A DNA stretch of 64,000 nt. Origin: Terriglobales bacterium (GTDB lineage Bacteria > Acidobacteriota > Terriglobia > Terriglobales > Acidobacteriaceae). Shown here in pieces: positions 8,504 to 30,488 of this stretch. How positions within the stretch are numbered: position 1 is the first letter of the stretch; each line of letters starts with the position of its first letter. The translations under genes were made by a program, and so were the position numbers. The stretch lies in contig DATJSG010000016.1 in assembly GCA_035504195.1 (NCBI GenBank), positions 284,828 through 348,827 of the forward strand, read 5' to 3'. The notes beneath the pieces were generated by a model. That model was not told the origin of the DNA. It did not search any database and saw only the letters and a list, made by a program, of their open reading frames with translations.

Positions 8504-8544
8504 CGCCTTTTCTCTCCCATCCTGAAACGGCTACACTCCCAATC

Positions 8545-9546: not shown

Positions 9547-9607
9547 AAGGCTTGGCGTGGCAACATGAAAGCTACCCTCTGAGAGCCGACCGCTTTCTCC
9601 TGCTATA

Positions 9608-10540: not shown

Positions 10541-10638
10541 AATCGGGTCAATGAGTGTAACGGCTAACAACAGTTGTGCGAAAATACCCACGATGAAACG
10601 ATGCGCCGCTGAAAGAGACAAAACGGGGAGAGCATCGA

Positions 10639-11016: not shown

Positions 11017-11025
11017 ACTACCCCC

Positions 11026-13147: not shown

Positions 13148-14754
13148 TGACCGTTCAGCTGGCTTGACCAGCCATCGAGCGAACTGAGACCCGCCGGCTT
13201 GATATCGCCCAGCCGCTTTCCCATATCCTGGAGCCGCTGGCAGTATGACCGATAAGCGTCATCCGAGACGCGGAACAGTCGCGGAGGGCACAATTGGCCG
13301 AGCCGCCGGCAATAGGCGTAGTGCGGATTCGCCGAGAGAAGGCCATCCAGTTTGGCACACATTTCCTCGGTAGCGTCAGCGTTGATGTAAAGCGTGTAAC
13401 GCGATTCTTTCGTATCCACGTCGGGCGCAAGCATGGCGAAAGATGGCCGAGTCTGCGCTTCATGAAATAGTTTCATCAAGACCGACGCCACAAATCCGTC
13501 GGATAATTTTTCTCCGACGTAGTCCGAGAGTTGCGCGGACTTGCCGACGAAACGAATAGATGGAGTTCGCCCCAGCATTCCGCCAACCACCACTCGATCA
13601 TCCAGGCGATAACGCCACAATCCCCCGCCGGTTGTGAGAATGACGTTGTACTCGTGATCTTGTTGGAGGTCTGATGAACAGCGTACCAGTCCGGCAGCAT
13701 CTTCAAATTCCAAATAGTGAGATCGAATGGCGAGCGGATGCTGGCCTTGAAACGGTATAGAAACGATACCCTCAGTTGCGATGAGCCCCTTGGGTTGGAC
13801 TACGACCGAGCCCAACGACTGCGCGAGTTCGGCGGCGGCACCAGCGGCGTGCCCGTCGGTCCAACAGCTCAGGATTCTGAGTTTGGGCCACACCTGATCA
13901 ATCTTCAGAGGACCACTTATCCGCAATTCTTCAGAACGGCGAGGGTCGGAACGAAACCGGATTTCTGCACGCGCTGCCGGGGGAAGGCGTTTCGCCACAG
14001 CACATGTCCCGGTGGCTATCTCTGCTAGGAGTTGAGTCCAGTGATCGACGATTGTTTGCAGCAGCAGCGAAAAGAAGGAGGGATGCCACACTGAGACGAG
14101 ACTCAGGTCCCTTCGTCGAAGCAAAAGCAATGCCGTGATGTAGCGCCAATCCTCCGTGGACGAAATGTGTTTAAGCTCAGACGGCACGGCCATGCTCGCA
14201 TCGATCAGCCGTTTATGCCACCTCCCGAGATATGCAGCGTCCTCATCAAACCCAACCGGTATCGACGAGCGCTCAACAAACTGAAACGGGTCCGCAATGG
14301 CAGGGGAAATAGACCAATACGCTACGCCCAGCACCGCCTTAGGATGCATACGATAAAGGTCAAAAATCCAGGGACCGATCGCCTGGTTGAGCTCCGAATG
14401 CATCGAGGCAGTATAGGGAATGAGTTTGCGCGCGGCCGTTGAGCCACTGGAAGGCACCAATCGCCTCACCGGCTCATCGGTCAGCACTCGAGTTTCCCCC
14501 TGTCGGATTCTCTCAATCCACGGCCGCAGATCATCGTAGTTACGAATGGGAACGCGACTGGCAAATTCCGCAGGGGTACATTCCTCCGACAATCCGTGCT
14601 CTTGGCCAAAGGCAGTGCGTGCGTTCTTTCTGAGGAACGAGCGAAGCACCTGCTCCTGAGCAGCAGCCGGATCCTGCAGAGCGGTGGCGAAGGCAGCATA
14701 GGAACGGCTGCTGGCAAGCCACCATAACGAGTTTGCGAGAGCAGCCTTCACCAT
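13135..14754 (-). CDS. GH3-family acyl-adenylate-forming amido synthetase-like protein
   Basis: Start at Met24 (MVKAALANSLWW). RNYDDLRPWIERI and VPSSGSTAARKLIPYT (the SSG(T/S)T..K.IP adenylation motif) are typical of bacterial GH3 proteins. Its start overlaps the upstream stop (ATGGTGA). Confidence 0.7.
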   Translation of the reverse strand: MVKAALANSLWWLASSRSYAAFATALQDPAAAQEQVLRSFLRKNARTAFGQEHGLSEECTPAEFASRVPIRNYDDLRPWIERIRQGETRVLTDEPVRRLVPSSGSTAARKLIPYTASMHSELNQAIGPWIFDLYRMHPKAVLGVAYWSISPAIADPFQFVERSSIPVGFDEDAAYLGRWHKRLIDASMAVPSELKHISSTEDWRYITALLLLRRRDLSLVSVWHPSFFSLLLQTIVDHWTQLLAEIATGTCAVAKRLPPAARAEIRFRSDPRRSEELRISGPLKIDQVWPKLRILSCWTDGHAAGAAAELAQSLGSVVVQPKGLIATEGIVSIPFQGQHPLAIRSHYLEFEDAAGLVRCSSDLQQDHEYNVILTTGGGLWRYRLDDRVVVGGMLGRTPSIRFVGKSAQLSDYVGEKLSDGFVASVLMKLFHEAQTRPSFAMLAPDVDTKESRYTLYINADATEEMCAKLDGLLSANPHYAYCRRLGQLCPPRLFRVSDDAYRSYCQRLQDMGKRLGDIKPAGLSSLDGWSSQLNGHYVE

Positions 14755-15485
14755 GGTGCTAACCCAGCCGCCATGCGGCGGCCAGCTGGCGTCAGGTTGT
14801 GCGGCGAGAGTTCGGTGAGACACACCAACTCATCACCTCGCTCGTGAGCCGGATTACGGGACAGAAAGAACTTGACGTGAGAGTCTCTATGGCGGCCCGC
14901 GGGGACCTCGGCAAGCGGACCGCGCAACCTTTGTGGATTTTGGAAATGGACCACCCCGGTCCTCGCATCATATGCATGGCCGAATCTTTCGGCGGCTAAC
15001 AGGTCGGTCAAACGCTTCCAGTATGGCGGTGTTTGCGAATCAAAGCGTGGGAAGAATTCTCGCCAGAACAGCGGTAAGAAACGATAGGTACGAAAACCGG
15101 AGGTGATCAAGAGCCATAGATAAAGACCACGCCGGTAACGATTGCGCAACTCGGCTACTGCTGCGATCCAGGTTCGGGGAAGGGTCGACGCGTTCCAACC
15201 TTCTGAAGCAACGATTGTGTCTCCCGAATAGACCACGCTGTATATTTCGCCACCGACTGATGTCTCGTACACGAGAAGCGTTGAGAACCCGACGAAGCAA
15301 CCGCCCTTCTCCAGCAAGATGACCCAATTTTTTTCCGAAAGATCGCGCTGGAATTGGGCCGGGGTCACACCTTCAAAGTGTTGGGACAGCAAGCCGTACA
15401 TCTGACTCAGATCGTGCTCCTGAAGGAGTCGGCGCGCAACAAGACGGCCAGTACAGGCCGCTTCAATCTCCGCTGCGGAGCTCAA
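14748..15485 (-). CDS. GNAT-fold acyltransferase-like protein (function unknown)
   Basis: 245-aa ORF with a TTG start that overlaps the upstream stop (TTGA). The central segment WVILLEKGGCFVGFSTLLVY...YSGDTIVASEGW looks like a GNAT core. The family assignment is from memory only. Confidence 0.5.
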   Translation of the reverse strand: MSSAAEIEAACTGRLVARRLLQEHDLSQMYGLLSQHFEGVTPAQFQRDLSEKNWVILLEKGGCFVGFSTLLVYETSVGGEIYSVVYSGDTIVASEGWNASTLPRTWIAAVAELRNRYRRGLYLWLLITSGFRTYRFLPLFWREFFPRFDSQTPPYWKRLTDLLAAERFGHAYDARTGVVHFQNPQRLRGPLAEVPAGRHRDSHVKFFLSRNPAHERGDELVCLTELSPHNLTPAGRRMAAGLAPW

Positions 15486-16651
15486 AGGGTTGCCACCTCC
15501 GGGAAAAACAACCGTTCATCGAGCTTGGGAGTAAAAGCGGCGCCGTCCTCCCAATACACAGCGTAAATGCGGCTCACATATTCGCGCACACGAAACACCC
15601 TCCGGAGATGCGCCAGACGAGGGTCGCGCGAATCAAAGCCAATCACCACGTAGTCGGCGGACCGGGCGCTAGGGGAGGTCCGCACGAGATTGATCAGACA
15701 TTCCGTGAGTTCCGGCTGATCAGACCGCGCGGCTAAATGGGAAACATAAACGTGCGAAAGCGCGCTGCCAATCTCCGGCAGGAGAGGCGTGCCGAGGAAC
15801 CTAGCCGCAACATTGCAGAATGGCCTCGCCCATTTCAAAACCCCTGAATATCCGCGTACCACGCTCTGCTTCATTGCTCTCTGGTCCCAGATGGCAGCAC
15901 ATCCCACCTGTGTCTCAAGACTCGAATACAAAGTACAGAAATCATCGGCACAAATTTCGCTTGCCGACCAAACCGGCGCAAATTGGTATTCACGATTGTT
16001 GCGGTTCAGGATTTCCAGGATATCGAGGCTGCTGCTGTGCGAACCGGGCAGCGCTCGAAGATCTCCCTTTCGAAGCAACCGCCGGGTACGGGATGCAGGA
16101 TGATTGAATTTCCAGAAATGACTCCGGCGGATGATCAGTGTCACCAAGTCGCCGAGAAACCTGTAGGTCGGCATTCCCGTGAGTCCTTTCTCCAGGAATC
16201 TGAGCGCTGCCTGATTGCCAGCAACGATGCTGCTCAGGTAGATCAGAGGCCCGCCCTGGTCATGGATATTCCTAAAGAGGTCATAGCCGCGGCGAAGGAT
16301 TTCAGCGCGGCCTTTGCACGACCGATCCAATCGCAGCCCGCTGAGATAACCAACCCGCATCGGCTCGCCATTAATAAATCTTTGACGAGCTGAGATGCTG
16401 CCAGTGGCCACAACGCGTCCGTTTTCAATGGCAACAATGGTTTGGTGTTCCGATCCTTCGAATTTGGCGGCAGCGAAAAACTCGGGCTCGCGCTCCAGGG
16501 ATACGCTGATGGAGCCCGGTATTGGATTCTCGCGGAGTAGGCGCCGGAGCGCCGCATCGTGGTCCGCGGTAGCCAACTCAAAATGCAGGCCATTATTAAG
16601 GCGTTTATCATTGCCAACGATTAATTGGCCTGAAGCAACGGACCCGTCCAC
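15482..16651 (-). CDS. two-lobed GNAT-like protein (function unknown)
   Basis: 389-aa ORF. FELATADHDAALRRLLRENPIPGSISVSLEREPEFF and VGYLSGLRLD resemble an N-acyltransferase fold. The start is uncertain: ATG 16651 overlaps the upstream gene by 31 nt, and an in-frame TTG lies further downstream. Confidence 0.5.
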   Translation of the reverse strand: MDGSVASGQLIVGNDKRLNNGLHFELATADHDAALRRLLRENPIPGSISVSLEREPEFFAAAKFEGSEHQTIVAIENGRVVATGSISARQRFINGEPMRVGYLSGLRLDRSCKGRAEILRRGYDLFRNIHDQGGPLIYLSSIVAGNQAALRFLEKGLTGMPTYRFLGDLVTLIIRRSHFWKFNHPASRTRRLLRKGDLRALPGSHSSSLDILEILNRNNREYQFAPVWSASEICADDFCTLYSSLETQVGCAAIWDQRAMKQSVVRGYSGVLKWARPFCNVAARFLGTPLLPEIGSALSHVYVSHLAARSDQPELTECLINLVRTSPSARSADYVVIGFDSRDPRLAHLRRVFRVREYVSRIYAVYWEDGAAFTPKLDERLFFPEVATL

Positions 16652-17979
16652 GATTCGTCCCCCAATGGATATCCATCACGCAAGCCTACATCGCCTCGGT
16701 GCATTGCATTGATGAGAAAGAAATTGCGCCACATGAAGCCATCGGCGCGATTGATGGGATCGAAACCTCTGCGAACGATGCTGCGCCACGAGTAAAACTT
16801 TCGCCGCGCCTCCAGACAACAACGTTGCAGGTCCACCGGAGTCATTCCCGCCGGACGAAAAGGAATGTCATTGTATCGATAACGATCATTGAGCCACCAG
16901 GCATCATAGATCAGTCGCCCGCCGGCCTGGAGGCGCTTGTACAACGGCGTGCCAGGAAATGGTGTGAGGTGGTTAAAAGCAGCAATGTACATCGAATTCG
17001 ACTGAGCAAACTTCACTGTTTGTTGAAAACTTTCCGGAGTGTCGCGATCATACCCAAAAATGAACGTTCCATAGAGACGAATGCAATACTTTCGCAAGTT
17101 TTCGAGCGCTTTCGCAAAGCCGCCGCGCATTAAGTTGAAGGATTTATTCATGTCCTTCAAGTTGTCGGAATCGAGACTTTCAAACCCAATCAACACTCCC
17201 ATACAGCCGCTGCGTACCAGCAACTCCAGGAATTCCTCGTCGTGAGCCGCATTTATGCTCGCCTGGCTTACCCAGCGGACTTTCGCCGGAATCAACTCGC
17301 GAAAGAATTCCTTCGCCTGAGCGAGATTTGATGTGATGTTGTCATCTACGAAAAAGAAGAGCTTTCTGTGTTTCTTCACGGCGTTGACTTCCGCAACAAT
17401 ATCGTCCAAGGGCCGGCGGGTTTGAGTGGCGCCGAAAACCGTCTGCACCGCGCAGAACTCGCATCGAAAGTGACAGCCCCGGCCTGCTTCAACAAGGCCG
17501 ATCGGTAGATATCGCTTTCCGCGAAAGATAGAGCGATCGGGTTTGACTTTCGCCAATAATGGACGACCTTCTGCCCTGTATCGTTCTCGCAATCGCGCTG
17601 ACCGAGCGTCGTCAATCACTTGCTCCCATAGACTCTCCGCCTCGCCCACAACGACGGCCTCCGCGTACTTCGCGACCTCATCGGGCACAAGCGAGGCATG
17701 AAAGCCTCCCATCACCACCGGTATCTTGCGGCGACGGTATTCACTGGCGATCTGATAGGCACGCTTCGCGGTATAGGTTTCGACGCTGATCGCGACAAGG
17801 TCGGTCGGTTCATCAAACGGAATGCGCTCCATACGATCGTCGTAAAACCTCACTTCCACACCCTTGGGCGTAAGGCCGGCAATGGTCGCCGCCGGCAACG
17901 ACTCCATCTGCCAAGTCCGGACATAACTGCTGTCGCCATTCCGGCGCCCGATGCAGGGATGGACAATTGTCAGTCTCAT
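16621..17979 (-). CDS. B12-binding-domain radical SAM protein (class B, DUF4070-type C-terminus)
   Basis: Start at Met28 (MRLTIVHP) overlapping the upstream stop (ATGA). It has an N-terminal Rossmann-like B12-binding region (DLVAISVETYTAKRAYQIASEYRRRKIPVVMGGFHAS). The CxxxCxxC motif is in GRGCHFRCEFCAV. Confidence 0.8.
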   Translation of the reverse strand: MRLTIVHPCIGRRNGDSSYVRTWQMESLPAATIAGLTPKGVEVRFYDDRMERIPFDEPTDLVAISVETYTAKRAYQIASEYRRRKIPVVMGGFHASLVPDEVAKYAEAVVVGEAESLWEQVIDDARSARLRERYRAEGRPLLAKVKPDRSIFRGKRYLPIGLVEAGRGCHFRCEFCAVQTVFGATQTRRPLDDIVAEVNAVKKHRKLFFFVDDNITSNLAQAKEFFRELIPAKVRWVSQASINAAHDEEFLELLVRSGCMGVLIGFESLDSDNLKDMNKSFNLMRGGFAKALENLRKYCIRLYGTFIFGYDRDTPESFQQTVKFAQSNSMYIAAFNHLTPFPGTPLYKRLQAGGRLIYDAWWLNDRYRYNDIPFRPAGMTPVDLQRCCLEARRKFYSWRSIVRRGFDPINRADGFMWRNFFLINAMHRGDVGLRDGYPLGDESWTGPLLQAN

Positions 17980-19385
17980 TGCGCTTCGGGAAGGTTCAAA
18001 GAGAGGGACCGAGGAACTGCTTCGGCGCTCGTCATTTGATCGGAGCGGCCGATGATCCAATCGCAGTTATAGAACTTGCTCAGGTGGTTCGAGTAGAACC
18101 GATAGCCGAGGTTGGTGGCCAACCGTACGCCCCAGGGGGCCGGGGAATGCGGCAAGCGGGCCAGGATCGAGGAAACGCTGTAAGCGTGTTTCCAGGCAAT
18201 TTCAGTGCCTCGTTCCAGCTCTCGAATGCTCATCCGCTTGGGTTGAAAGACGACGTGTTGGCCATCGTAGAGTTCCCAGTTGCGGGTTAGGATTCGGCCT
18301 TCACTCTCGAGTCGGCTGTAAAGAGCGGTTCCAGGAAACGGCGTCACAATTGCGAACCGAGGAAGATCGATTTTCGCGGCCACGGCAAACTTCGCGGTTT
18401 TCATGAAGACGTCGGCATCATCGCCGTCCAATCCGAAAACGAAGCATCCCTGCAACGCGATGCCATGATCGTGAAGATTTTCAACTATGCGAACAAAGTG
18501 CTCAGGAGAATTGAACGCTTTTTTGCTTGCACGCAAGTTCTCAACTGAAACGGACTCCAGCCCCATGAGCAATCCGCGACAGCCGCTTCTCGCGGCCATG
18601 TCCAACAACTGCGGATCTTCCGCGAGCAGTACGGTTGCCAACCCATACCACTGCACACGCATGGGGATCAGCGCCTTGAATAAGCGAATTGCGTAGCCGC
18701 GATCGGCGATGAGATTGAGGTCTACAAAAATCAGTTTTCGAGCGCCATGCTGCCGGATGTCCTCGACTACGTCTTCGACAGGTTTTTGTAATGGCTTGCG
18801 TCCCCAGGCCGCCGGCACAACGCAGAAGTCACAGTTATGCACGCAACCACGCGTAGCCTCAAAAACACTATTCGTCAGAAAACGTCTTGAGGGGAGGAGA
18901 TCGCGACGCGCAAACGGCCGCCTCGCAAGGTCGAGATCGGGAGCCTGGTCGTATCTTCGCTGCATCCGGCCAGCCGCAAAGTCGCGAAGCAATTGTGGCC
19001 AGGTATCTTCGGCATAGCCAACGATGATCGAATCTGCGTGTGGCTGCGCGTCATCGGGAACGAGGGTGACGTGAGGTCCACCTAGAACTGTAGCAATCCC
19101 GCGTGATCTGAAATGTCTTGCCAGGTCATACGCGCGCGGGGCAGTGCCTGTAATTACAGTCAATCCGACAAGGTCGGCATCAAGGGATTCTGGAACTTCC
19201 TGGATGCCCTCATCGATGAGCGTGACCTCAGCGTTCATTTGAGGAGGGATCAGGGAGGCAAGAGTAGTCAGCGTCAACGGTTGGTAACGCAGAGACTTAC
19301 GGAAAATTCCTCCACGATGGCGGTAAAGCGGCCCTTTCGGAGAAACGAGAGCCAGTCGCAAGGGTCGTCCATCACGAGGCAACAC
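17976..19385 (-). CDS. B12-binding-domain radical SAM protein (paralog of 16621..17979)
   Basis: GTG start preceded by GGAGGTGG. The B12-binding-like region is DLVGLTVITGTAPRAYDLARHFRSRGIATVLGGPHVT. The CxxxCxxC motif is in TRGCVHNCDFCVV. The overall layout is collinear with the downstream paralog. Confidence 0.8.
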   Translation of the reverse strand: MLPRDGRPLRLALVSPKGPLYRHRGGIFRKSLRYQPLTLTTLASLIPPQMNAEVTLIDEGIQEVPESLDADLVGLTVITGTAPRAYDLARHFRSRGIATVLGGPHVTLVPDDAQPHADSIIVGYAEDTWPQLLRDFAAGRMQRRYDQAPDLDLARRPFARRDLLPSRRFLTNSVFEATRGCVHNCDFCVVPAAWGRKPLQKPVEDVVEDIRQHGARKLIFVDLNLIADRGYAIRLFKALIPMRVQWYGLATVLLAEDPQLLDMAARSGCRGLLMGLESVSVENLRASKKAFNSPEHFVRIVENLHDHGIALQGCFVFGLDGDDADVFMKTAKFAVAAKIDLPRFAIVTPFPGTALYSRLESEGRILTRNWELYDGQHVVFQPKRMSIRELERGTEIAWKHAYSVSSILARLPHSPAPWGVRLATNLGYRFYSNHLSKFYNCDWIIGRSDQMTSAEAVPRSLSLNLPEAQ

Positions 19386-19536
19386 GCGATACCACCTCCG
19401 GCCAACCGATCAGCCACTGGAAAAACTGCTTGAAATCCTTGGCGGAGATATTATAGTTATCCTCCACTTTGTCAAGTAATGCTGCCTCAGACAGTCGAAA
19501 ACAAGATTGAACGGAGCGACGAGTAGCAAATTTGTT

Positions 19537-20466
19537 ATGGCGAATGCGCCTCCACGTCTGTCGATCGTGCAGATTGCGGACCACGCCCATCGTTGCCGTA
19601 CCGACCGATCTCCTCTCGAAACTGACCTTCCCATCGATTTCACAAAACCTTTCGTCTGTCCCAGTTTGACAGCCCTCTATTACACCCCATTTTGGAGCAA
19701 ATTGGAGCCCACGGATCAGTTACGGTACACGCAACTATCCGCTCTGTCGTTCAACGAGTTGATCGCATGGTTTGAAAGAGGGTTTAGCTCAACGTTGCGG
19801 GCACTTATGCGAAGCGATCGGTTGCCGGAGGAGTTGAAATCACTCTTGCCAGGTTTTCTCGAGGACGAGTGCCGGCATCAGGAGATTTGGTGGACTCTCA
19901 ACCGTCGTGTCGATCCCGTGCGATATTCACGCAATATTGCGTCGATCTCTAAGATAGCTCCGGCGGGGCGCGCTTTGATGAGTTGGCTGGCCAGCCGTCC
20001 GCTGGATTATCCCGTTGTCATTTGGCTCATGCTTGTTCTGGAAGAACATGGCAACGAGATTGCTCGCCGTTGCGCAGCAAGACGACCCGACGAGATCGAA
20101 CCCCACTTCGCAGCGGCCTATCTCGCGCACGTTCGCGATGAGATCCGCCATGTTCAGATCGACTGGCATTTGCTGGATTCGCTGTGGCCGTCGCTCCGGG
20201 GATGGCGTCGGCGCATGAACATCGAGCTCTTCCGGTTGGTGATCGCACGCCTGTTGTTTAAGACAGAGCATGCTTCGATGTCGGTTGTGGAAGAACTTGT
20301 CCGGGAAAGGCCCCGACTTCGGCTATTGCTGCCGCAACTTCGCACACAGCTGCGCGAAGTCAGTCAGGACCGGGAATTTAGAAGCATGATGTTGTCCGCC
20401 CGATCGACTCCTATTGTTTTCCATCTTTTGGATTTGTTTCCCGAGCTCGAGAGCGTAATCGCGTGA
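19537..20466 (+). CDS. AurF-like ferritin-fold diiron oxygenase
   Basis: Carboxylate/His motifs are spaced as in diiron proteins: LEDECRHQE, LEEHGNE, VRDEIRHVQ. The start is ATG 19537, or alternatively TTG 19507. Confidence 0.55.
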   Translation: MANAPPRLSIVQIADHAHRCRTDRSPLETDLPIDFTKPFVCPSLTALYYTPFWSKLEPTDQLRYTQLSALSFNELIAWFERGFSSTLRALMRSDRLPEELKSLLPGFLEDECRHQEIWWTLNRRVDPVRYSRNIASISKIAPAGRALMSWLASRPLDYPVVIWLMLVLEEHGNEIARRCAARRPDEIEPHFAAAYLAHVRDEIRHVQIDWHLLDSLWPSLRGWRRRMNIELFRLVIARLLFKTEHASMSVVEELVRERPRLRLLLPQLRTQLREVSQDREFRSMMLSARSTPIVFHLLDLFPELESVIA

Positions 20467-21383
20467 CCAGAGTCCACGAAATCCCTAACGCAGCCAATGC
20501 GGTTGTCGTGGCGGTGCAACTCTCTGTCGTAGCCCTCTGCATCGCGGAGTGCAGAACGGCCAACGGCTGGTGGTGCATTGTGATCGGAGCCATGTTCGTA
20601 TTGACCTTGAATTCGGTTTATTTTGCAATTCATGAGGCGGAGCATGGCCTCTTGTTCTCCAACCGCAGATGTAACGAACTAGCGGGGACGATTCTCTCTG
20701 TCCTGCTTCCCGCCCCATACACTTTCATCCGCAATGTCCATCTCGCACACCATGTGCATAATCGTTCGGACGACGAAGTCTTTGATCTGTACTTCGAAGA
20801 AGATCCGGCCTGGTGGAAGAAACTGCAGTTTTTCGGCATTCTCACTGGAGGCTTTTGGCTGAGCCTGGTTGTCGGCAATATTGCGCTCGCTGTGGTACCC
20901 ATGCGATGGCTCTCGAAAGCCGTGGAGATCGACCGTCCTTCTGCGGCGGTGGTGCGCTATGTCAATCGGCGAAATCAGTGGTGGATCCGGGCAGAGGCCT
21001 GGATGGTCCTTCTTTTTCATTCGACAGTTTGCTGGCTGCTAGGGCCGCGGGCAATCAGGTACGGTCTGATGTACCTTGTCTTCGGTATGAGCTGGTCAAC
21101 GCTGCAGTATGTTCATCATTATGGGACTTGCCGGGACGTGCTGCGAGGCGCGAAGAATTTGCGTTACGGGTGGCCGCTTGATGTGCTGTGGCTCAATCAT
21201 GGCTGGCACTTGACTCACCATCTTCATCCCACGGTGTCATGGCTGCATTTGCGCCGAGTCGCGAGAGAGGATGAGCCTCGCGTGGAATCACTGGGCAGCG
21301 CTTATCTGAAAATGTGGCGAGGTCCACTGCTGACCAGCGAACGTGTGCAGAATCGCTATGACGGATACGTTGTACAACAGTAA
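20463..21383 (+). CDS. membrane fatty-acid desaturase family protein
   Basis: The histidine boxes are HEAEHG, HLAHHVH and HLTHHLH, and there are several TM helices. The GTG start overlaps the upstream stop (GTGA). Confidence 0.75.
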   Translation: MTRVHEIPNAANAVVVAVQLSVVALCIAECRTANGWWCIVIGAMFVLTLNSVYFAIHEAEHGLLFSNRRCNELAGTILSVLLPAPYTFIRNVHLAHHVHNRSDDEVFDLYFEEDPAWWKKLQFFGILTGGFWLSLVVGNIALAVVPMRWLSKAVEIDRPSAAVVRYVNRRNQWWIRAEAWMVLLFHSTVCWLLGPRAIRYGLMYLVFGMSWSTLQYVHHYGTCRDVLRGAKNLRYGWPLDVLWLNHGWHLTHHLHPTVSWLHLRRVAREDEPRVESLGSAYLKMWRGPLLTSERVQNRYDGYVVQQ

Positions 21384-22068
21384 CGCGGTTGCGATTGACT
21401 GGCCGGTCCACCGTCGACTGATCATGGTCCTGCTCGGCTATATTCCAATGCTTTTGTCAGGCCTCGTCGTATCTTGTATCGTACTTCCCGCGCGACGGTG
21501 GGGCCTGGTCAAAGGAGTGGCATGCGGCGTAATTGTCTTCTATGTTTTTCCGCCGCTGGCTTTTCGCGTGGCGTCCCTTTTATTCAAACCTCAGCCGGGA
21601 CGGCATTCGGTCGCATCCGCCGATTTCCTGCGTTGGTGGTTGTCTGCGCAATGGCAAGTGATTTTTAATCGCTTGCCAATGTTCGAGGAACTGCTTCGAA
21701 TCGTTCCCGGACTCTACTCAGCCTGGCTTCGTCTGTGGGGGGCGAAGATCGGCTCACTCGTGTATTGGAGTCCCGGAGTTGCGGTACTGGATCGAGCCTT
21801 CGTATGCATCGGCAGCCGCGTGGTGTTTGGCGCGGGCGTGCGACTCAATCCTCATGTGATTGTTCCAGGTAAGAAGCGGGAAGCTCAACTGTGGCTCGCT
21901 CCCGTGACCTTGGGCGATGACGCCCTGATCGGAGGTTACAGTCTGATTACCGCCGGCTGTACCGTTCCGGCCGGAGTTTCTCTGCCAGCCGGCAAATACG
22001 TTCGACCGTTTTCCACCTGGCAAGATAACGAATCGGCCCAAAGCCGATACGAGGGCGATTCGGATTGA
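21358..22068 (+). CDS. membrane-anchored hexapeptide-repeat (left-handed beta-helix) acyltransferase
   Basis: It has N-terminal TM helices followed by imperfect hexapeptide repeats (IGSRVVFGAGVRLNPHVIV ... VTLGDDALIGGYSLITAGCTVPAGVSL). The start is uncertain (21343, 21358 or 21424). The first two options overlap the desaturase 3' end. Confidence 0.55.
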   Translation: MTDTLYNSNAVAIDWPVHRRLIMVLLGYIPMLLSGLVVSCIVLPARRWGLVKGVACGVIVFYVFPPLAFRVASLLFKPQPGRHSVASADFLRWWLSAQWQVIFNRLPMFEELLRIVPGLYSAWLRLWGAKIGSLVYWSPGVAVLDRAFVCIGSRVVFGAGVRLNPHVIVPGKKREAQLWLAPVTLGDDALIGGYSLITAGCTVPAGVSLPAGKYVRPFSTWQDNESAQSRYEGDSD

Positions 22069-22751
22069 GCCGATCTTTACATTCCGCGTTACTGAGCCGA
22101 CTTCGATCGAACGTGGGATTGAAAATTGTTATGTTGCTCACCTTGCCCGTTGCCGTGACAGTTGGCTATCTTGCGATCCAGCGCGCTGTTGTTTTTCCAG
22201 ACGGTAGAGTTCCTCTGACGTGGTTCGACCACGTTATTCCTTTTCAGCCGCGTTGGGTCTGGGTCTATCTCTCGATGTATTTACTCAATCCCATTGGGCC
22301 TCTGTTCACCCGGTCGCGCGAGGACTTATTCCGGTATGCCCGCGGCATTCTGTTCTTTTTCGTTTGTGGATTCGTGTGCTTTGTATTCTTTCCAGTCCCG
22401 GGACCGCGGCCGCCTCGCGCGGACGATTTTTGGCTGTATCAGAGGCTTATTCTCGTTGATCGCCCCTACAATTCCTTTCCCTCCTTGCATGCCGCGTGTG
22501 CAGTTTATGCGGTTCTCTTCGCGGCCTACGCATCGTGCGATACATCGCGTCCCCATCTGAGAATTTCGCTGCTTTCTCTGGCATGGCTGTGGGTTGGCCT
22601 GATCTTGTATTCCACCGTAGCTACTCGTCAGCATTTCGCGATCGACTTGCCCGCCGGAATGTTCCTGGGCTGGCTTGCGCAATCGCTTTTTGTCAGTCGG
22701 AGCTCGCGTGCATCGAGCAAGACAGCTTTCGTCGACAGAGAGGCTGCGTGA
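22065..22751 (+). CDS. PAP2-superfamily membrane phosphatase/phosphotransferase
   Basis: It is polytopic. SFPSLHAACAV and TRQHFAIDLPAG match PAP2 C2/C3-type motifs, as in PAP2_C / IPC- or SM-synthase-like proteins. The TTG start overlaps the upstream stop (TTGA); an alternative ATG is at 22131. Confidence 0.6.
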   Translation: MSRSLHSALLSRLRSNVGLKIVMLLTLPVAVTVGYLAIQRAVVFPDGRVPLTWFDHVIPFQPRWVWVYLSMYLLNPIGPLFTRSREDLFRYARGILFFFVCGFVCFVFFPVPGPRPPRADDFWLYQRLILVDRPYNSFPSLHAACAVYAVLFAAYASCDTSRPHLRISLLSLAWLWVGLILYSTVATRQHFAIDLPAGMFLGWLAQSLFVSRSSRASSKTAFVDREAA

Positions 22752-23797
22752 TTCAGGAATCCCAATGCGCCATGCTCGCGCCTCCCCGGGCGGAAGCCTT
22801 CCCCGACTCACCTATGGGCTGGTACATACTTGGCCAATCGCACGAAATAACGAGTCGACCGAAAGCTATGGAGTTATTCGGCGAACGGCTTGTTTGCTTC
22901 CGTCTGTCCTCAGGAAGAGCGGTAACGATGGATGCGCGCTGTTGGCATCTAGGCGCCGACCTTTCCAAAGGCGTGGTTGCGGGTGATCAGATCGTTTGCC
23001 CGTTTCATGGTTGGCGATATGGAGCATCCGGAGATTGCGAGTTCATACCAAATCAGGAAGGCATCCCCGCCGCCCGCCAGCGGACTTATCAGACAGAAGA
23101 GCATGCGGGCTACGTGTTTGTCTTTCCATGCGATGTCTGCGACTACCCACCGCCATTCTTCGCAAGTATCGACCGGGCCGAACTCATCGCGGCTCCGTCG
23201 TTTGAATTTTTCATCGAGTGTCCTTGGTGGTTGGTAGGCACGAATGGCTTCGATCTTCAGCACTTCACCGGCTTACATCATCGCCGCCTCGTGGGCTTGC
23301 CAGCGATTGAATCACCCCATCCGGCAGCGCGGAGAATCGTGACGACCTTTGAGATTTGCGGAAGCAATTGGCAAGATCGACTCACACGAAGGGTTGCAGG
23401 TTCCCGAGTGACCATGGACGTGACCATTTGGTCTGGGACACTGGCGTTCGTCATGGCGCACTTTCACGATTCGGCGACTGCGGATCCCCGCTCCACGCGA
23501 ACCACCAGTTACGGCATGACCGAGATCCGGGCCCTTTCATCTCCGCGGGAACAGAGATCGCACGTGCGAGTAACGATCTTCCGCAAAAGGCGGCCCGGGT
23601 TAGCCATGCTTGACTGGCTGGACGTGCGAATCAAGCGATATTTCATTCATGCCTTCCTGAAGCCTGATACACTCCTGCTGACCCGGGCCCGGTACAACCG
23701 TGACCACTTGATCCATGCTGACCGGCAGATGATCGACTATCTTTGCTGGCTGGCGGCTGTTTCCAGCAAACGTTCTAATGCGAAGGAGCCGACATGA
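22748..23797 (+). CDS. Rieske [2Fe-2S] non-heme-iron oxygenase
   Basis: The GTG start overlaps the upstream stop (GTGA). The Rieske motif is CWHLGADL...CPFHGWRY. The mononuclear iron motif is NGFDLQHFTGLHH (D-x2-H-x4-H). Confidence 0.75.
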   Translation: MIQESQCAMLAPPRAEAFPDSPMGWYILGQSHEITSRPKAMELFGERLVCFRLSSGRAVTMDARCWHLGADLSKGVVAGDQIVCPFHGWRYGASGDCEFIPNQEGIPAARQRTYQTEEHAGYVFVFPCDVCDYPPPFFASIDRAELIAAPSFEFFIECPWWLVGTNGFDLQHFTGLHHRRLVGLPAIESPHPAARRIVTTFEICGSNWQDRLTRRVAGSRVTMDVTIWSGTLAFVMAHFHDSATADPRSTRTTSYGMTEIRALSSPREQRSHVRVTIFRKRRPGLAMLDWLDVRIKRYFIHAFLKPDTLLLTRARYNRDHLIHADRQMIDYLCWLAAVSSKRSNAKEPT

Positions 23798-24438
23798 TCT
23801 CGAGATCTGCAGTCGTTGTGATCACGCTGTTTGCTCTGGCAGTTGCTGTCATTCCTGCGGCGGCGGTTGATAACCCCTCAACTCCCCAGACCGTCGATGA
23901 GTCTAGCGCTGGGTTGGATCATTTGCGCGCTGCGCTGAAGGACGCATACGCGAAAGGCGACATCGACGCCATGATGCGTTACCTTCACCCCGACGTGGTC
24001 GTTGTTTTTCCGGATGGCAGCATCTTGAAAGGCCCTCAGGCTTTTCGCAACTACTATCAACAAATGATGACTGCTCCGAACCACCGCGTAGTCAGCTATT
24101 CTGCCGATCCCCAAGTCGAATCCCGGACCGTGCACAATGATGTCGGTCTTTCCTATGGCTATATGAACGATCGATACGTTCTCAATGACGGCAGGAGTTT
24201 TGCTCTGAATAGTCGGTTCACGGTGACCGTTTTCAAGTCCCCGGACGGACCAAAAGACACAGATGGCTGGATGATCCGTAGTTTTCATTCGTCTGCCGAT
24301 GCCTTCGATAATCCCATCATCACGATGGTTGCTCAAGGCGTCTTTTGGAGGGCGGGAATTGGTGGTGCGGTTGTGGGTACAGTGCTTGGTTTGATTGTTG
24401 GCATCTTCGCTCGTCGCCGGAAAACATCGACCACTTAA
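23794..24438 (+). CDS. NTF2/SnoaL-like (DUF4440-type) protein with signal peptide and C-terminal TM anchor
   Basis: The ATG overlaps the upstream stop (ATGA). The signal-like N-terminus is MISRSAVVVITLFALAVAVIPAAA. DIDAMMRYLHPDVVVVFPDG is SnoaL-like. The C-terminal hydrophobic tail is GIGGAVVGTVLGLIVGIFARRRK. Confidence 0.5.
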   Translation: MISRSAVVVITLFALAVAVIPAAAVDNPSTPQTVDESSAGLDHLRAALKDAYAKGDIDAMMRYLHPDVVVVFPDGSILKGPQAFRNYYQQMMTAPNHRVVSYSADPQVESRTVHNDVGLSYGYMNDRYVLNDGRSFALNSRFTVTVFKSPDGPKDTDGWMIRSFHSSADAFDNPIITMVAQGVFWRAGIGGAVVGTVLGLIVGIFARRRKTSTT

Positions 24439-24468
24439 CGAAAAGCCTTCGCAAAAATTAGGACGACG

Positions 24469-24585
24469 ATGAAACGGATCGCTATTCTCAGCGATCCAGA
24501 ACCGGCTCAGATTCTTGCCTTGTGGACACATTCGCAAAAGAGCATGGTGTCCATTCTCGGCTCAGCACGGAAGAATGCCGACTAG
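24469..24585 (+). pseudogene. possible C-terminal remnant of the IS4-like transposase
   Basis: The short ORF MKRIAILSDPEPAQILALWTHS... weakly resembles the FKRLKS..L...DP..A..WL segment near IS4 transposase C-termini. It lies just inside the right IR. The similarity is judged from memory only. Confidence 0.3.
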
Positions 24586-26390: not shown

Positions 26391-26480
26391 TGGCGGAGAG
26401 AGAGGGATTCGAACCCCCGATACCCGTAAAGGTATACACGCTTTCGAGGCGCGCGCCTTCAGCCACTCGGCCATCTCTCC
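26391..26480 (-). tRNA. tRNA-Ser (anticodon CGA)
   Basis: The reverse complement reads GGAGAGATGGCCGAGTGGCTGAAGGCGCGCGCCTCGAAAGCGTG-(long variable arm)-GGGGGTTCGAATCCCTCTCTCTCCGCCA. The 7-bp acceptor stem, the T-loop TTCGAAT and the class II variable arm were folded by eye. Confidence 0.85.
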
Positions 26481-26613: not shown

Positions 26614-27612
26614 TCACTGCTGTTGCTGTTGTTCCTGCTCGAGTTGCCTTGCTGGAGCGCGCAGCAGTACCGGTCTTGACCGCACCACGAAGCTGGGTGC
26701 TGCGGGCGGTGGGACCACGCTGTCCGCAGGGCTTACCGTCACCGTGACGCTCAACTCGCTTTGCGATTCGCCCTTATAGACGCCGCGGGTAGGAGGAACG
26801 TCGGCGTAATCGCGTCCGATGGCTACGCGGATGTGGCGGTCGCCGCCGACCAGATTATTGGTCGGATCGAACGCTACCCATCCCAGCCTGGGCACCAATG
26901 CTTCTACCCAGGCGTGCGACGCGCCTTCGAGGGACCTGTCTTTCTCGCTCTCGTCGCGATGGAACATGTATCCGCTGACGTAGCGGCAGGGAATGTTCAG
27001 CCGCCGCACCAGCGCGATCATGATGTGGGCGAAGTCCTGGCAAACTCCCTGACGCGCCTGGATCGCTTCTTCAATCGGCGAATCTACTTTCGTGCTGTTG
27101 GGAACGTAGGCAAATCGCTCGTAAATTGCGGCGTTGAGTGCGGTCAACATCTCAAACGGATTCGTGTGGCGCTCGCGGCTCACTTCATTGGCGGCGCTTT
27201 CGAGGGCAATGTCTTCGAGTAATTCTTTCGCCAGGCTTTCGAGCGCCGGGCTGGAGCGCGCGAACTGGCTGGGCAATAGCATTTCCCAGTAGTCGCCGCC
27301 CGCCACGAGCGCGTCAAGATCGGCCCAGTCACCGCAGTCGGAGGCACGCGGCCGGGACACCGTCTGCACTTCTACTGACGACTCTGCCGTGACTTTCACC
27401 TGCGTGTGACTGCCGGCTATGTCGAAATGATGGACCGTGTTGCCGGCAAAATCGCGGTATTGCATGAGGTTTGCCGCCGGCTCGACCTTGAGGGTGAAGC
27501 TCAGACAGCGTTGGTCGCCGTCGCTGCGCGGTTGCAAGCGGACCTCCATCACGCTCTCGCGCACCGCAGGTTCGTAGCGAAACGTGGTAGCGTGGCGGAC
27601 GGAATAGATCAA
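26614..27612 (-). CDS. transglutaminase-like protein (Bact_transglu_N plus transglutaminase core)
   Basis: MIYSVRHATTFRYEPAVRESVMEVRLQPR is the typical N-domain. GVCQDFAHIMIALVRRLNIPCRYVSGY contains the core Cys, and HAWVEA...FDPTN contains the His and Asp. The C-terminus ends in EQEQQQQQ. Confidence 0.8.
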   Translation of the reverse strand: MIYSVRHATTFRYEPAVRESVMEVRLQPRSDGDQRCLSFTLKVEPAANLMQYRDFAGNTVHHFDIAGSHTQVKVTAESSVEVQTVSRPRASDCGDWADLDALVAGGDYWEMLLPSQFARSSPALESLAKELLEDIALESAANEVSRERHTNPFEMLTALNAAIYERFAYVPNSTKVDSPIEEAIQARQGVCQDFAHIMIALVRRLNIPCRYVSGYMFHRDESEKDRSLEGASHAWVEALVPRLGWVAFDPTNNLVGGDRHIRVAIGRDYADVPPTRGVYKGESQSELSVTVTVSPADSVVPPPAAPSFVVRSRPVLLRAPARQLEQEQQQQQ

Positions 27613-27792
27613 GGCTCCTCTTTTCGTGAATCAGGCGAATTCGGTCAGGGGCTAAAGCCTTCACTCATTCGGCGGCTTATGGGGCCCTCGAAGGTCCACT
27701 TGTCCGCGGCGGCGTATCGTCTGCTTTATTGCGCGGCGTCCAAAGCCGCAGCCTGCCCCAAATCCTGTCTTGAAGCGAATTCGAAGCTATCC

Positions 27793-28791
27793 TTACGAAA
27801 CCAGCGCCGATTCCACTGAATAATCGAAGTACACCTGATGGATCGCCGTATGCGCCTGGGCACACTGATGGCGCACATTGTTCACATAAGCATTCGCGCC
27901 CGACGCCATGATTTCTTCGATCTGGCTGTAACTCAAGGTCGCGCATAGCCGTCCGGCGAGCCGCTCCGGCTGTTCCATTTTGCGCTCGGTCAATTCTCCA
28001 ATTGCGGTCAGGGCCCGATGCACGCGGTCCACGGAGAACCGCACCGAATGAGGGAATTCGAGATTCAGCAGCAGAAACTCGGCCACGCGCAGCGGGCGAA
28101 TCTCGGCCGTGTAGGTCTTGCAATAAGCCTCAAACGCCGCGCAGGACTTCAGCAGTGCCACCCATTCCAGGTATCCTTCGCTCTCGACGGCTTGATCGAG
28201 GGCATGCGGCAAGCGTCCGAAGTGAGTTCCAATCAGCCGCGCCAGTTCGTCAGTGCGCTCGACAAATCGCCCGAGTTGGATGTACTGCCAGCCTTCGCCA
28301 TGGGACATGGTCGAATCGGTCACACCCTGAAACAGATGTGCGCCCTCCTGCACGGCGCGAAAAAAGACGTGCGAGTGGAGCAGCCAGGCCTCGCTCGCCG
28401 TCGTGCTATTCACTTGCAGGTACAGGCGGTTGAGCTGCTCCCACATTTCCGTGCTGCACTGTTCGCGCACCTGCCGAAGATTTTCGCGCGCCGCTGCCAC
28501 GCAGGAAAGAATCGACGAGGCATTGGTGCGGTCAAGGGTGAGAATGTGGGTGAGCGATGCCGCATCGATCTTGCCGTCTTCGGGCGGCGCCACCTGGCAG
28601 GCTTCGAGCAGCCGAAGCCAGCGCCCCGCGCCCGTTTCCGGGGATTGATCGAGGCGAAGCTGCAAGTCGACATCGATCAGCCGCGCGGTGTGCTCGGCGC
28701 GCTCCAGGTAACGGCTCATCCAGTACAAACTGTCCGCGACCCGCGAAAGCATTACGGATTGTCTGCGCCCTGCCATGCCTGATCCATTCAT
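27793..28791 (-). CDS. alpha-E domain protein (DUF403)
   Basis: MLSRVADSLYWMSRYLERAEHTARLIDV is the canonical alpha-E N-terminus. Confidence 0.8.
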   Translation of the reverse strand: MNGSGMAGRRQSVMLSRVADSLYWMSRYLERAEHTARLIDVDLQLRLDQSPETGAGRWLRLLEACQVAPPEDGKIDAASLTHILTLDRTNASSILSCVAAARENLRQVREQCSTEMWEQLNRLYLQVNSTTASEAWLLHSHVFFRAVQEGAHLFQGVTDSTMSHGEGWQYIQLGRFVERTDELARLIGTHFGRLPHALDQAVESEGYLEWVALLKSCAAFEAYCKTYTAEIRPLRVAEFLLLNLEFPHSVRFSVDRVHRALTAIGELTERKMEQPERLAGRLCATLSYSQIEEIMASGANAYVNNVRHQCAQAHTAIHQVYFDYSVESALVS

Positions 28792-28837
28792 GCCGGTTCG
28801 ATCATATTGGCTCGTTCGTTTCGTGCTGGAGTATCGA

Positions 28838-28965
28838 GTCGACCTCAGGGGCTAAAGCCCCGGTTTATTTTTTGCCCCTTAACGCGGCCCTTAAGGGCCG
28901 CTCTTCCACGGCGATCCATGCATTGGTGGCGCTTCCACGGCGATCCGTCCGTCCGTGGCGCTCTC
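28838..28965. repeat. intergenic REP-like cluster
   Basis: It contains CAGGGGCTAAAGCCCC, the 18-bp palindrome GCGGCCCTTAAGGGCCGC and a direct repeat CTTCCACGGCGATCC (two copies). Confidence 0.55.
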
Positions 28966-28967
28966 GG

Positions 28968-30488
28968 TTACGCGCGCAGCACCCAGGTATCTTTGCTGCC
29001 GCCGCCTTGCGACGAATTTACCACCAGCGATCCGCGGCGCAGGGCCACGCGAGTTAATCCTCCGGGCACCAGCGTGACATTCTCGCCATACAAAATGTAG
29101 GGACGCAGATCCACATGCCGCGCCTGCACTTCGCCGTCGAGGAAGCAAGGCGCACGCGACAGGCTCAGCGTGGGCTGCGCGATGTAGTTTCGGGGCTCGG
29201 CCTCGATTCTGCGGCGGAAGTCTTCCCTTTCTTCTTCTGTGCTGTGCGGGCCAATCAACATGCCGTAGCCGCCCGACTCTCCGACCGCCTTCACCACCAG
29301 TTCTTCCAGATGATCGAGCACATAATTTCTCTGTGAACGGTCGTTAAGCAGATATGTCTGGATATTTTGCAGGACGGGATCTTCGCCCAGATAGTACCGA
29401 ATGATCGCCGGCACATACGCGTACAGAGCCTTGTCATCGGCGACTCCGGTTCCGATCGCGTTGGCCAGGATCACGTTGCCGGCGCGATAGGCGTTGAACA
29501 ATCCCGGCACGCCCAGGCTCGAGTCCTGGCGGAAACACAGCGGGTCGAGAAAGTCGTCGTCGACGCGGCGGTAAATCACGTCCACGCGCCGCAGGCCTGC
29601 CGTAGTCCGCATATAGACGACATTGTCGTGGACGAGCAGATCGCGTCCCTCGACCAGTTCAATGCCCATCTGCTGCGCCAGAAACGTGTGCTCGAAATAT
29701 GCGGAATTGAAAACTCCCGGCGTCAGCAAAACCACTGTCGGTTCGTGCCGCGAAGTGGAACTTCCCGGCGCTAGCGCGCGCAACGTCGCCAGCAACGCCT
29801 GGGCGTAGTGGTCTACCGGGCAGACGCCGTAATCCCCAAACATGGTGGGGAACACTTTCTTCAGCACTTTGCGATTGGCCAGCATGTAGGAAACGCCGCT
29901 GGGAACCCGCAAATTGTCTTCGAGCACCGCGAAGCTGCCGTCGGGAAGGCGCACCAGGTCGGTTCCGCAAATGCTGACATAGATGCCGCGGGGCACGGTG
30001 ATGCCGCGCATCTCACGCCGGAAGTGGCGGCAGCTGTAAACCAGTTCGCGCGGAACAATGCCATCGGCCAGAATTCTTCCGTGATGGTAAATGTCTTCGA
30101 GAAAAAGATTCAGCGCGGCAATGCGCTGGGTGAGGCCGCTTTCGATCCTGCGCCATTCCTCGTGCGGAATAATTCGCGGCAGCAGATCGTTAGGAAAAAC
30201 GCGTTCCGTCCCTTCTTCGTTGCCGTAAACCGTGAACGTGATTCCCTGGTGCAGAAAGGAGAGATCGGCGGCCTGCTGGCTCTTGCGCAGTTCTTCGGGA
30301 GGCAGTTCGAGCAACGTTTGAAACAATGCCTTGTAATGCGGACGCGGCGTGCCCGGCGCGGCAAACATTTCGTCGTAGGCGCCACCGAACTGGTAGTTGC
30401 GAAATGGAGGTCGAAAAAGTGTAAGTGGAGGTTCCGGCGAAGTCATCCGGTGTACGAGTGCGCGGGCTCGGGTACGGCTGGGCTGCAC
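28968..30488 (-). CDS. circularly permuted type-2 ATP-grasp protein
   Basis: It is a 506-aa protein. YDEMF...[37 protein letters not shown] and [15 protein letters not shown] are typical of the CP_ATPgrasp_2 family (DUF404/DUF407). Confidence 0.8.

Follow-up and report, generated by a model that had tools for sequence, protein, structure and literature searches.

Several of the closest described counterparts of the genes treated here come from bacterial lipid biosynthesis. Only recently was a GH3 ligase shown to make a bacterial lipid: OlsH of Singulisphaera acidiphila, the only characterised bacterial member of the GH3 enzymes, uses a free fatty acid for the ATP-dependent N-acylation of ornithine, in a pathway whose O-acyltransferase, OlsI, is an alpha/beta-hydrolase (PMC12493201). 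Among the cobalamin (B12) radical S-adenosylmethionine (SAM) enzymes, Gmm methylates lipid tails and GrsA and GrsB form rings in them (PMC11214058), and CylC, a distant relative of AurF, acts on carrier-bound fatty acyl chains (PMC8406957). Here, we analysed a 64,000-nucleotide stretch of a metagenome-assembled Terriglobales bacterium (Acidobacteriota; positions 284,828 to 348,827 of contig DATJSG010000016.1), hereafter called the window, in whose numbering all positions are given. Its 11 genes at 13135-24438, arranged in two divergent operons, very probably constitute one co-functional biosynthetic cluster, which we file as an undescribed variant of GH3-based bacterial lipid biosynthesis outside the OlsHI pathway.

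The cluster resembles the OlsHI pathway in having a GH3 ligase at the heart of a lipid cluster, in a putative separate O-acyltransferase step and in its overlap in Planctomycetota. An alpha/beta-hydrolase found in sister clusters has the OlsI fold but is unrelated to OlsI in sequence, and the window itself encodes neither OlsI nor OlsG. The OlsHI pathway, in turn, lacks the two GNATs, two B12 radical SAM enzymes, three oxygenases, Aur1-like PAP2 protein and NTF2 protein that are present here. The OlsH model (NF052613) reached only 36.6 bits on the GH3 protein of the window against a cut-off of 620, over residues 25-108 only. As the features that define OlsHI were not found, the cluster is not a member of that pathway.

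Similar mixtures of likeness and difference emerged for the other known systems. With sphingolipid tailoring (Aur1, Des1-type and Bacteroides enzymes), the cluster shares a PAP2_3 protein with FPSLH and H-x3-D motifs, a His-box di-iron membrane enzyme and an implied substrate, namely an amide-linked acyl lipid with a free hydroxyl; serine palmitoyltransferase, ceramide reductase and bacterial ceramide synthase, however, are absent here, and the amide bond would come from the GH3 ligase and an N-myristoyltransferase (NMT)-like enzyme. The radical SAM enzymes have the N-terminal B12-binding domain and Cx3Cx2C core of HpnP/HpnR, GrsA/GrsB and Gmm and are likewise encoded within a lipid cluster, whereas the two paralogs of our cluster always form an adjacent pair, and all model scores obtained lie far under the respective cut-offs. 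Tail coupling of the Mss/Tes type was also considered for this pair, with no evidence either way. The AurF-like protein carries the ferritin-like fold and the four Glu and three His ligands at AurF spacing (H-x3-E-x2-H), but differs from AurF and CylC in that a membrane desaturase invariably accompanies it and, in one case, is joined to it in a fusion. Lastly, one of the GNATs resembles eukaryotic NMT in its tandem-GNAT fold and strictly conserved C-terminal residue, yet it is bacterial and lies in a small-molecule cluster, where its acceptor is probably a lipid or amino-acid amine rather than a protein N-terminus.

A first-pass annotation made from the letters alone had not recognised the gene combination as a described pathway, and our searches bear this out. 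No NCBIfam model reached its cut-off for the ten products scanned (all but radical SAM enzyme A), with the hopanoid, sterol, ladderane, carotenoid, guanitoxin and OlsH models all scoring far below theirs, and literature searches, including full-text ones, found the combination described nowhere. Recent papers on GH3-dependent aminolipids leave the cluster unmentioned, and one of them notes an uncharacterised, Acidobacteria-enriched GH3 clade.

Recurrence of the two operons across genomes

The cluster consists of a conserved and a variable half. The conserved half, the − strand operon (13135-19385), encodes the cobalamin-binding radical SAM enzymes A (17976-19385) and B (16621-17979, with the longest open reading frame, ORF, to 18060), the predicted tandem-GNAT, NMT-like N-acyltransferase GNAT389 (15482-16651), the small GNAT acyltransferase GNAT245 with a C-terminal extension (14748-15485) and a GH3-family acyl-acid amido synthetase, an ATP-dependent amide ligase (13135-14754, called at 539 aa, with the longest ORF to 14823). 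According to the gene calls, its junctions comprise two 4-nt overlaps, one of 7 nt and one of 31 nt. The six genes of the + strand operon form the variable tailoring half: a predicted AurF-like soluble diiron (dimetal-carboxylate) oxygenase (19537-20466), a membrane di-iron desaturase/hydroxylase-like enzyme (20463-21383), a putative membrane-anchored left-handed beta-helix (LbH) acyltransferase (21358-22068, 236 aa), a predicted PAP2 phosphotransferase resembling Aur1 and other inositol phosphorylceramide (IPC) synthases (22065-22751), a Rieske non-haem iron oxygenase of the alpha-subunit type (22748-23797) and an NTF2-like (SnoaL/DUF4440) periplasmic protein (23794-24438). All six ORFs are intact and co-directional, and the four 4-nt overlaps of a start with a stop codon (GTGA at 20463-20466, TTGA at 22065-22068, GTGA at 22748-22751 and ATGA at 23794-23797) and the motifs quoted in the first-pass annotation were found at their positions. 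At the remaining junction, the desaturase stop codon lies at 21381-21383, which makes the two genes overlap by 26 nt with an LbH start at 21358 and by 41 nt with one at 21343; the conserved N-terminus MTDTLYN favours 21358, and ortholog alignments likewise favour starts at 19537 (AurF-like) and 22748 (Rieske). No transporter or regulator was found among the genes called in the cluster. Directly 3' of the NTF2 gene lies a 38-aa ORF (24469-24585, +) that the gene calls of both assemblies of this contig contain but that is uncalled in a 66%-identity relative, L016.

Between the operons, a 151-bp gap (19386-19536) holds the two best sigma-70-like matches of a 12-kb scan, one per strand: TTGAAA-16-TATAGT on the + strand (19430-19457) and TTGACA-16-TAATAT on the − strand (19475-19448), with overlapping -10 elements. 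In four relatives (L004, L005, L011 and L016) with a protein identity of just 65-90%, these hexamers are invariant while the surrounding bases diverge. This conservation amid diverging flanks suggests that a single control region serves both operons.

Upon scanning one genome per species with the AurF-like profile, we obtained only 8 loci, all in metagenome-assembled genomes of Acidobacteriota and Planctomycetota. Acidobacteriaceae and Sulfotelmatobacter relatives carry the 11 genes in the layout of the window, and in L004, L005, L011 and L016 the genes are intact within unrelated flanks; as the neighbours differ on both sides, we set the cluster boundaries at 13135 and 24438. Rearrangements were found as well: in L009 (Acidobacteriota) all genes lie on one strand with the two sets interleaved, and L018 is also rearranged. 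A 9.2-Mb Planctomycetota genome has the order Rieske-GNAT245-GH3-GNAT389-desaturase-FG-GAP-FG-GAP-AurF-desaturase-LbH-PAP2-NTF2, without radical SAM genes. Individual loci show further features. In L009 (15191-17530), a Rieske-domain segment and radical SAM enzyme B share one 779-aa frame, by fusion or a missing stop; in L018 (2762-3795) the Rieske gene is split into two ORFs; and two FG-GAP/UnbV_ASPIC beta-propeller genes precede the AurF-like gene in the Thermoanaerobaculia and Planctomycetota versions, with one protein being an FG-GAP-AurF-like fusion (L007:6759-9935; L008/L013; P0322).

For metagenomes, we scanned with the profile of GNAT245, the most widespread marker, whose homologs at E <= 0.001 number more than 5,640, one per 90%-identity cluster, and are about 60% identical across phyla. 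The scan yielded at least 507 contigs; the best 80 loci were kept and censused with purpose-built hidden Markov models (HMMs). Counted as loci and lineages without phylogenetic correction, at least three tailoring families stood beside the core in 20 of the 26 core loci (18 of 24 lineages) that extend at least 5.5 kb beyond radical SAM enzyme A, and two more carried one or two such families. The tailoring order is shuffled across Acidobacteriota, Planctomycetota and Proteobacteria, and falls into two classes: AurF-desaturase-LbH-PAP2-(Rieske)-NTF2 (21 loci, 16 lineages), and desaturase-PAP2 plus Rieske-NTF2 with a 320-350-aa protein, with or without AurF (9 loci, 9 lineages). The latter protein has no Pfam match, and its profile matches Ser-Asp-His esterases of the alpha/beta-hydrolase type (E 2e-7). 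Common to the two classes are the desaturase, PAP2 and NTF2 genes. Three testable rules follow from the census: the five-gene core is fixed in order in these loci (rSAM_A-rSAM_B-GNAT389-GNAT245-GH3, where rSAM denotes radical SAM); LbH and alpha/beta-hydrolase would be interchangeable acyltransferases, as they co-occur in no censused locus (21 versus 9 loci); and the pairing of AurF with a membrane desaturase is obligate. By contrast, the Rieske and AurF-like genes come and go among variants, some of which have no oxygenases, and radical SAM genes are absent from the Planctomycetota and Burkholderia versions; radical SAM and oxygenase genes are thus separable add-ons.

Because this gene set recurs in shuffled order and within unrelated flanks in dozens of independent contigs, its arrangement goes beyond chance. 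The first-pass annotation was correct both in calling the + operon a membrane-lipid-type tailoring operon and in tying it to the divergent radical SAM operon, although the GH3 ligase and both GNATs of the latter were absent from its account. The two outcomes that it had set against its reading did not appear: none of the genes was assigned to a known, unrelated pathway, and no pseudogenes were found.

Versions of the cluster also occur in cultured bacteria. An IncFIB/IncFII plasmid of Citrobacter portucalensis 64A:C (NZ_CP134684.1, about 51.4-63.5 kb) carries GNAT245-GH3-rSAM-rSAM-GNAT389-rSAM-rSAM-PAP2-NTF2 together with a divergent rSAM-desaturase pair, under generic RefSeq annotation, and Burkholderia arboris MEC_B345 has a version with a desaturase, a Rieske protein and PAP2 and without radical SAM genes. 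In Acinetobacter baumannii (locus L108; NZ_CP064203.1, 1.50-1.52 Mb), the order is HlyD - MFS - GNAT245 - GH3 - OEP - GNAT389 - SurE-like, which places the trio of the GH3 and GNAT genes within an operon for a tripartite efflux pump; this accession of a clinical pathogen is a 3.97-Mb replicon labelled 'plasmid'. From the differences among these variants, we take GNAT245-GH3-GNAT389 as the minimal core and the radical SAM genes, the oxygenase/PAP2 set and the efflux pumps as modular additions. Furthermore, in five metagenome loci (L054, at 13383-16091, L066, L071, L073 and L078), a gene for a TrwC relaxase/helicase of about 900 aa follows GH3 at a distance of a few kb, which, together with the IncF plasmid, makes the system appear mobile. 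In the window, the GC content of the cluster (13000-24500) is about 55-56%, compared to 59-61% in the flanks (8-12 kb and 26-30 kb), and the AT skew goes down to -0.19 over the + operon. The low GC content and the variable flanks of relatives fit horizontal acquisition.

Enzymes of the conserved core and the tailoring operon

The GH3 protein was recognised with 160 bits (Pfam cut-off 23.6), with additional matches to GH3_M and GH3_C, carries the nucleotide-binding motifs SSGST at 125, ATEG at 349 and YRLDD at 405, and matches plant GH3 structures at E 2e-15. For the two GNATs, sequence searches against the PDB gave nothing significant, so that structure prediction was needed. GNAT245 matches Acetyltransf_9 with 26.2 bits. 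The AlphaFold2 model of GNAT389 (predicted local distance difference test, pLDDT, 89.7) has a tandem-GNAT fold, and its top Foldseek matches were NMT1 and the tandem GNAT MAB_4324 (E about 1e-12, template-modelling score 0.52), with no sequence-level match to the NMT Pfam families. The catalytic base of NMT is its C-terminal carboxylate; for this reason, it is of interest that all 38 diverse members of the GNAT389 family examined end in E-x-A-x-Leu-COOH with an invariant C-terminal Leu.

Radical SAM enzymes A and B are paralogs of 35% identity, each with a Cx3Cx2C core (CVHNCDFC in A, CHFRCEFC in B). Enzyme A has a B12-binding domain (44.5 bits, cut-off 32.1), a Radical_SAM domain (46 bits) and DUF4070, and enzyme B has a Radical_SAM domain (57 bits) and a borderline B12-binding match (31.7 bits against 32.1). 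For HpnR, enzyme B scored 46 bits against a cut-off of 650. These are the slowest evolving genes of the cluster, 70-80% identical where GH3 and GNAT389 are only 40-48% identical; enzyme B, in particular, is 72-81% identical in loci where GH3 is at about 45%.

HMM searches upheld the family calls that the first-pass annotation had made for the tailoring operon, with AurF, FA_desaturase, PAP2_3, Rieske and SnoaL_2 above their Pfam cut-offs and Hexapep just below. The AurF-like protein (PF11583, 48.5 bits against 29.6; ECRH at 111, EIRH at 202) has the full set of four Glu and three His ligands, E74, E111/H114, E169/E170 and H198/E202/H205, invariant in 14 homologs, and matches AurF itself at only E 0.017. 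Among 1.84 billion representatives, about 237 50%-identity clusters fall into its clade. The fusion partners of relatives are a desaturase (one relative, on a single 3-kb contig, beside a DUF4440 gene), AMP-binding (fatty-acyl-AMP-ligase-type) plus carrier domains, MMPL and FG-GAP, indicating that the substrates may be carrier- or membrane-bound acyl chains and that the AurF-like protein and the desaturase probably work as a pair. The locus with the AMP-binding-PP-binding-AurF fusion (L023) is a different lipid-type cluster, with MMPL, DUF3419, HMG-CoA-reductase/APH fusion and PPDK_N proteins; DUF3419 is the family of the betaine-lipid synthase BtaA. The desaturase of the window (FA_desaturase, 95.7 bits against 29.7) has transmembrane (TM) segments and three His boxes, HEAEHG at residue 57, HLAHHVH at 93 and HLTHHLH at 249; it reached no NCBIfam equivalog (best CrtR, 26 bits against 475) and had no match in the PDB.

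The LbH protein scored 25.8 bits for Hexapep (cut-off 27), and its profile matches maltose/galactoside O-acetyltransferases at E 1e-7, with their catalytic His aligned to an invariant H166. Its TM-linker region resembles one unit of the Pls/PosA C-terminal domain (E 8e-7), but the corresponding non-ribosomal peptide synthetase model TIGR02353 gave just 27.8 bits against 423 on what is a stand-alone protein. The PAP2 protein (PAP2_3, 43.9 bits against 27; PAP2, 42.5) has the motifs PSLH at 139 and RQHFAID at 188 and the invariant residues R115-P116, H142, H190 and D194. A kinship to IPC synthases had been suspected, and the best PDB match of its profile was indeed yeast Aur1 (E 3e-6), in an alignment that brings FPSLH and H-x3-D into register; for classical phosphatases, E stayed above 0.2 (PLPP3 and LpxE, 0.24-0.31). 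We therefore predict an Aur1/IPC-synthase-like phosphotransferase, although the phosphoinositol-dihydroceramide synthase model of Bacteroides reached only 18.8 bits against 480. Following the positive-inside rule, it would have six helices with both termini inside, placing PSLH and H-x3-D on the periplasmic side.

The Rieske protein (67.7 bits against 20.3) carries CWH...CPFH at 65-87 and DLQHFTGLH at 169, and its orthologs retain the Cys/His ligands as well as the D-x2-H-x4-H motif. The NTF2 protein (SnoaL_2, 38.4 bits against 27, with DUF4440 and SnoaL_3 matches) has hydropathy peaks at 7-25 and 183-205, consistent with a signal peptide and, at the C-terminus, a TM anchor in the form of a Gly-rich helix followed by RRRK; both are conserved in 10 orthologs from several phyla. 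Membrane topologies were read from hydropathy.

A proposed pathway and its rivals

Tentatively, and at somewhat less than an even chance, we propose that the cluster builds an amide-linked fatty-acyl amphiphile of the cell envelope. The GH3 ligase would adenylate a free fatty or other carboxylic acid and link it to an amine, in analogy to the acylation of ornithine by OlsH, while the NMT-like GNAT389 would place a long acyl chain, activated by coenzyme A, on a second amine and GNAT245 would acylate or acetylate a further position. The two cobalamin radical SAM enzymes may alkylate, probably methylate, unactivated carbons, and the AurF-like and desaturase-like pair, together with the Rieske enzyme, would insert O2-derived hydroxyls or double bonds at the cytoplasmic face. 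The TM-anchored LbH protein would esterify a new hydroxyl, as the alpha/beta-hydrolase might in sister clusters. After flipping, the Aur1-like PAP2 protein would take a phospho-head group off a glycerophospholipid and place it on a free hydroxyl in the outer leaflet, where the tail-anchored periplasmic NTF2 protein could bind or finish the product.

The evidence for these steps differs in kind. Amide and acyl chemistry is suggested by the GH3 motifs, the analogy to OlsH, and the NMT-like fold and invariant Leu of GNAT389. O-acyl transfer is suggested by the alignment of LbH with sugar O-acetyltransferases, by its mutual exclusion with the alpha/beta-hydrolase and by OlsI being an alpha/beta-hydrolase, and head-group transfer by the Aur1 rather than phosphatase match of PAP2 and the periplasmic placement of its motifs. 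The first-pass annotation had left the product open between a lipid and a polyketide-like molecule. As the GH3 ligase and the two GNATs are the most widely kept genes, an amide-linked acyl product is favoured over a polyketide.

Several observations weigh against an envelope amphiphile. While the 11 gene families, the co-inheritance of the two operons and the conserved divergent promoter-like region are demonstrated here, every chemical step was inferred from family resemblance. Arylamine N-oxygenation is the activity for which AurF-type enzymes are chiefly known, the GNAT245 model (pLDDT 91) matched generic GNAT folds and none specifically, and the nearest solved relative of the Rieske protein, KshA (84 bits), aligns over the Rieske domain only (residues 22-136 to 22-161, varying with the KshA entry). 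Tailoring genes are missing near four of the 26 core loci, from four lineages, and in L007 the core is absent within 10 kb of the tailoring set. Moreover, sampling the best matches to the query biases the census towards close relatives. Finally, the efflux-operon, relaxase and plasmid contexts are as compatible with an exported accessory metabolite as they are with an envelope lipid.

This last point leads to the strongest rival, in which the same enzymology yields, rather than a structural lipid of the envelope, an amphiphilic secondary metabolite that is secreted or released, for example a surfactant, signal or antibiotic of the N-acyl amine or amino-acid type, with PAP2 and NTF2 processing it during export. 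It would account for the trio inside an HlyD-MFS-OEP efflux operon in A. baumannii, the TrwC relaxases that adjoin five metagenome loci, the C. portucalensis IncFIB/IncFII plasmid, the patchy distribution with varying flanks, and the GC content of about 55% against flanks of 59-61%. On the other hand, a transporter is lacking from the cluster of the window and from its Acidobacteriota relatives, Aur1-type enzymes take membrane phospholipid donors and make membrane lipids, and the NTF2 protein is membrane-tethered in all orthologs. We consider an exported metabolite possible but on the unlikely side.

The remaining explanations are each poorly supported. Tailoring of a hopanoid or sterol would combine KshA/SdmA-like oxidation, a ketosteroid-isomerase-like step by NTF2, methylation or side-chain modification by HpnP/HpnR/HpnJ-like radical SAM enzymes and GH3 amide conjugation of an amino-hopanoid. 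Acidobacteriota and Planctomycetota do both make hopanoids, KshA is the best solved match of the Rieske protein (84 bits), and the best NCBIfam matches were the sterol enzyme SdmA for the Rieske protein (52.7 bits) and HpnJ for radical SAM enzyme B (90.6 bits). Yet these scores lie far under the cut-offs of 600 (SdmA) and 577 (HpnJ), the KshA match is limited to the generic Rieske domain, and neither a cyclase nor hpn genes were found in the window neighbourhood or in related loci. In addition, many variants do without the Rieske gene, the fusions of AurF-like relatives suggest acyl chains as substrates, and versions occur in Citrobacter and Acinetobacter, which are not known as triterpenoid makers. 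A triterpenoid product is accordingly very improbable.

The chance is just as slight for maturation of a ribosomally synthesised and post-translationally modified peptide (RiPP), a lipopeptide made by B12 radical SAM C-methylation, GNAT/NMT-like N-terminal lipidation and GH3 ligation. Enzyme B weakly matches the RiPP radical SAM models ApyD (65 bits) and rSAM_ocin_1 (23 bits), and the fold matches of the two GNATs include NMT and NatD, both enzymes of protein N-termini. As the genes overlap or abut, with the 151-bp promoter region as the only gap, there is no room for a precursor; the 38-aa ORF after NTF2 is uncalled in L016 and no conserved small ORF was found, the cluster contains no protease or ABC exporter, and four of the six + operon products are lipid-type membrane enzymes. 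That unrelated neighbours, or an aromatic or steroid catabolic oxygenase set, lie beside the radical SAM operon by chance is scarcely credible: Rieske and NTF2 families are common in catabolic clusters, but the synteny kept across phyla despite rearrangement contradicts this reading, as do the translational coupling, the AurF-desaturase fusion in one relative, and the absence of reductase, ferredoxin, ring-cleavage and beta-oxidation genes from the cluster. An anti-phage function was also considered; PADLOC gave no match for nine of the ten products scanned (all but radical SAM enzyme B) and one weak, generic 27-bit match for radical SAM enzyme A, which speaks against a defence system within the reach of its models.

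Surroundings and significance

Upstream of the cluster, the window contains a polyamine-synthesis block (4890-12216) with a pyruvoyl arginine decarboxylase, a 383-aa protein of unknown function, a deoxyhypusine-synthase-like protein (−), a HEAT protein, a CN_hydrolase (N-carbamoylputrescine amidase) and agmatine deiminase. A link to the cluster was dropped, as none of these neighbours stands beside it in any related locus. Downstream, at a distance of 2 kb, lies tRNA-Ser(CGA) (26391-26480, −), the only RNA gene that Rfam found in the window, with no riboswitch or other RNA; neither att-like direct repeats nor an integrase that would mark a genomic island were seen. Further genes follow: a transglutaminase/Alpha-E/circularly permuted ATP-grasp set (26614-30368, −), a phospholipase B-like gene (30636-32117) and, in a zone 13-20 kb downstream of the cluster, a HigB-like toxin with a helix-turn-helix antitoxin (37704-38345, +) and a solitary TrbI-like conjugal-transfer gene (44981-45817, −).

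The analysis defines a large orphan family of gene clusters that brings together a GH3 ligase, cobalamin radical SAM enzymes, O2-dependent oxidation and an IPC-synthase-like transferase. For finding the product, C. portucalensis with its IncF plasmid, B. arboris and A. baumannii offer culturable carriers. Soil and peat Acidobacteriota are abundant, mostly uncultured and a source of climate-proxy lipids, whose biosynthesis is only partly known. For example, the acidobacterial genomes examined yielded no mss homolog, yet these bacteria make iso-diabolic acid (PMC13159169). One narrower form of the envelope amphiphile, which we regard as doubtful but worth stating, is a new class of envelope lipid: a ceramide-like, amide-linked phospholipid made without serine palmitoyltransferase, with assembly by the GH3 ligase and the NMT-like enzyme, radical SAM alkylation of the tails, O2-dependent hydroxylation, acylation and an Aur1-like head-group transfer. 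If this were true, many uncultured Acidobacteriota, Planctomycetota and their relatives in soil and peat would make such a lipid, which could explain some of the orphan lipids found in the environment.

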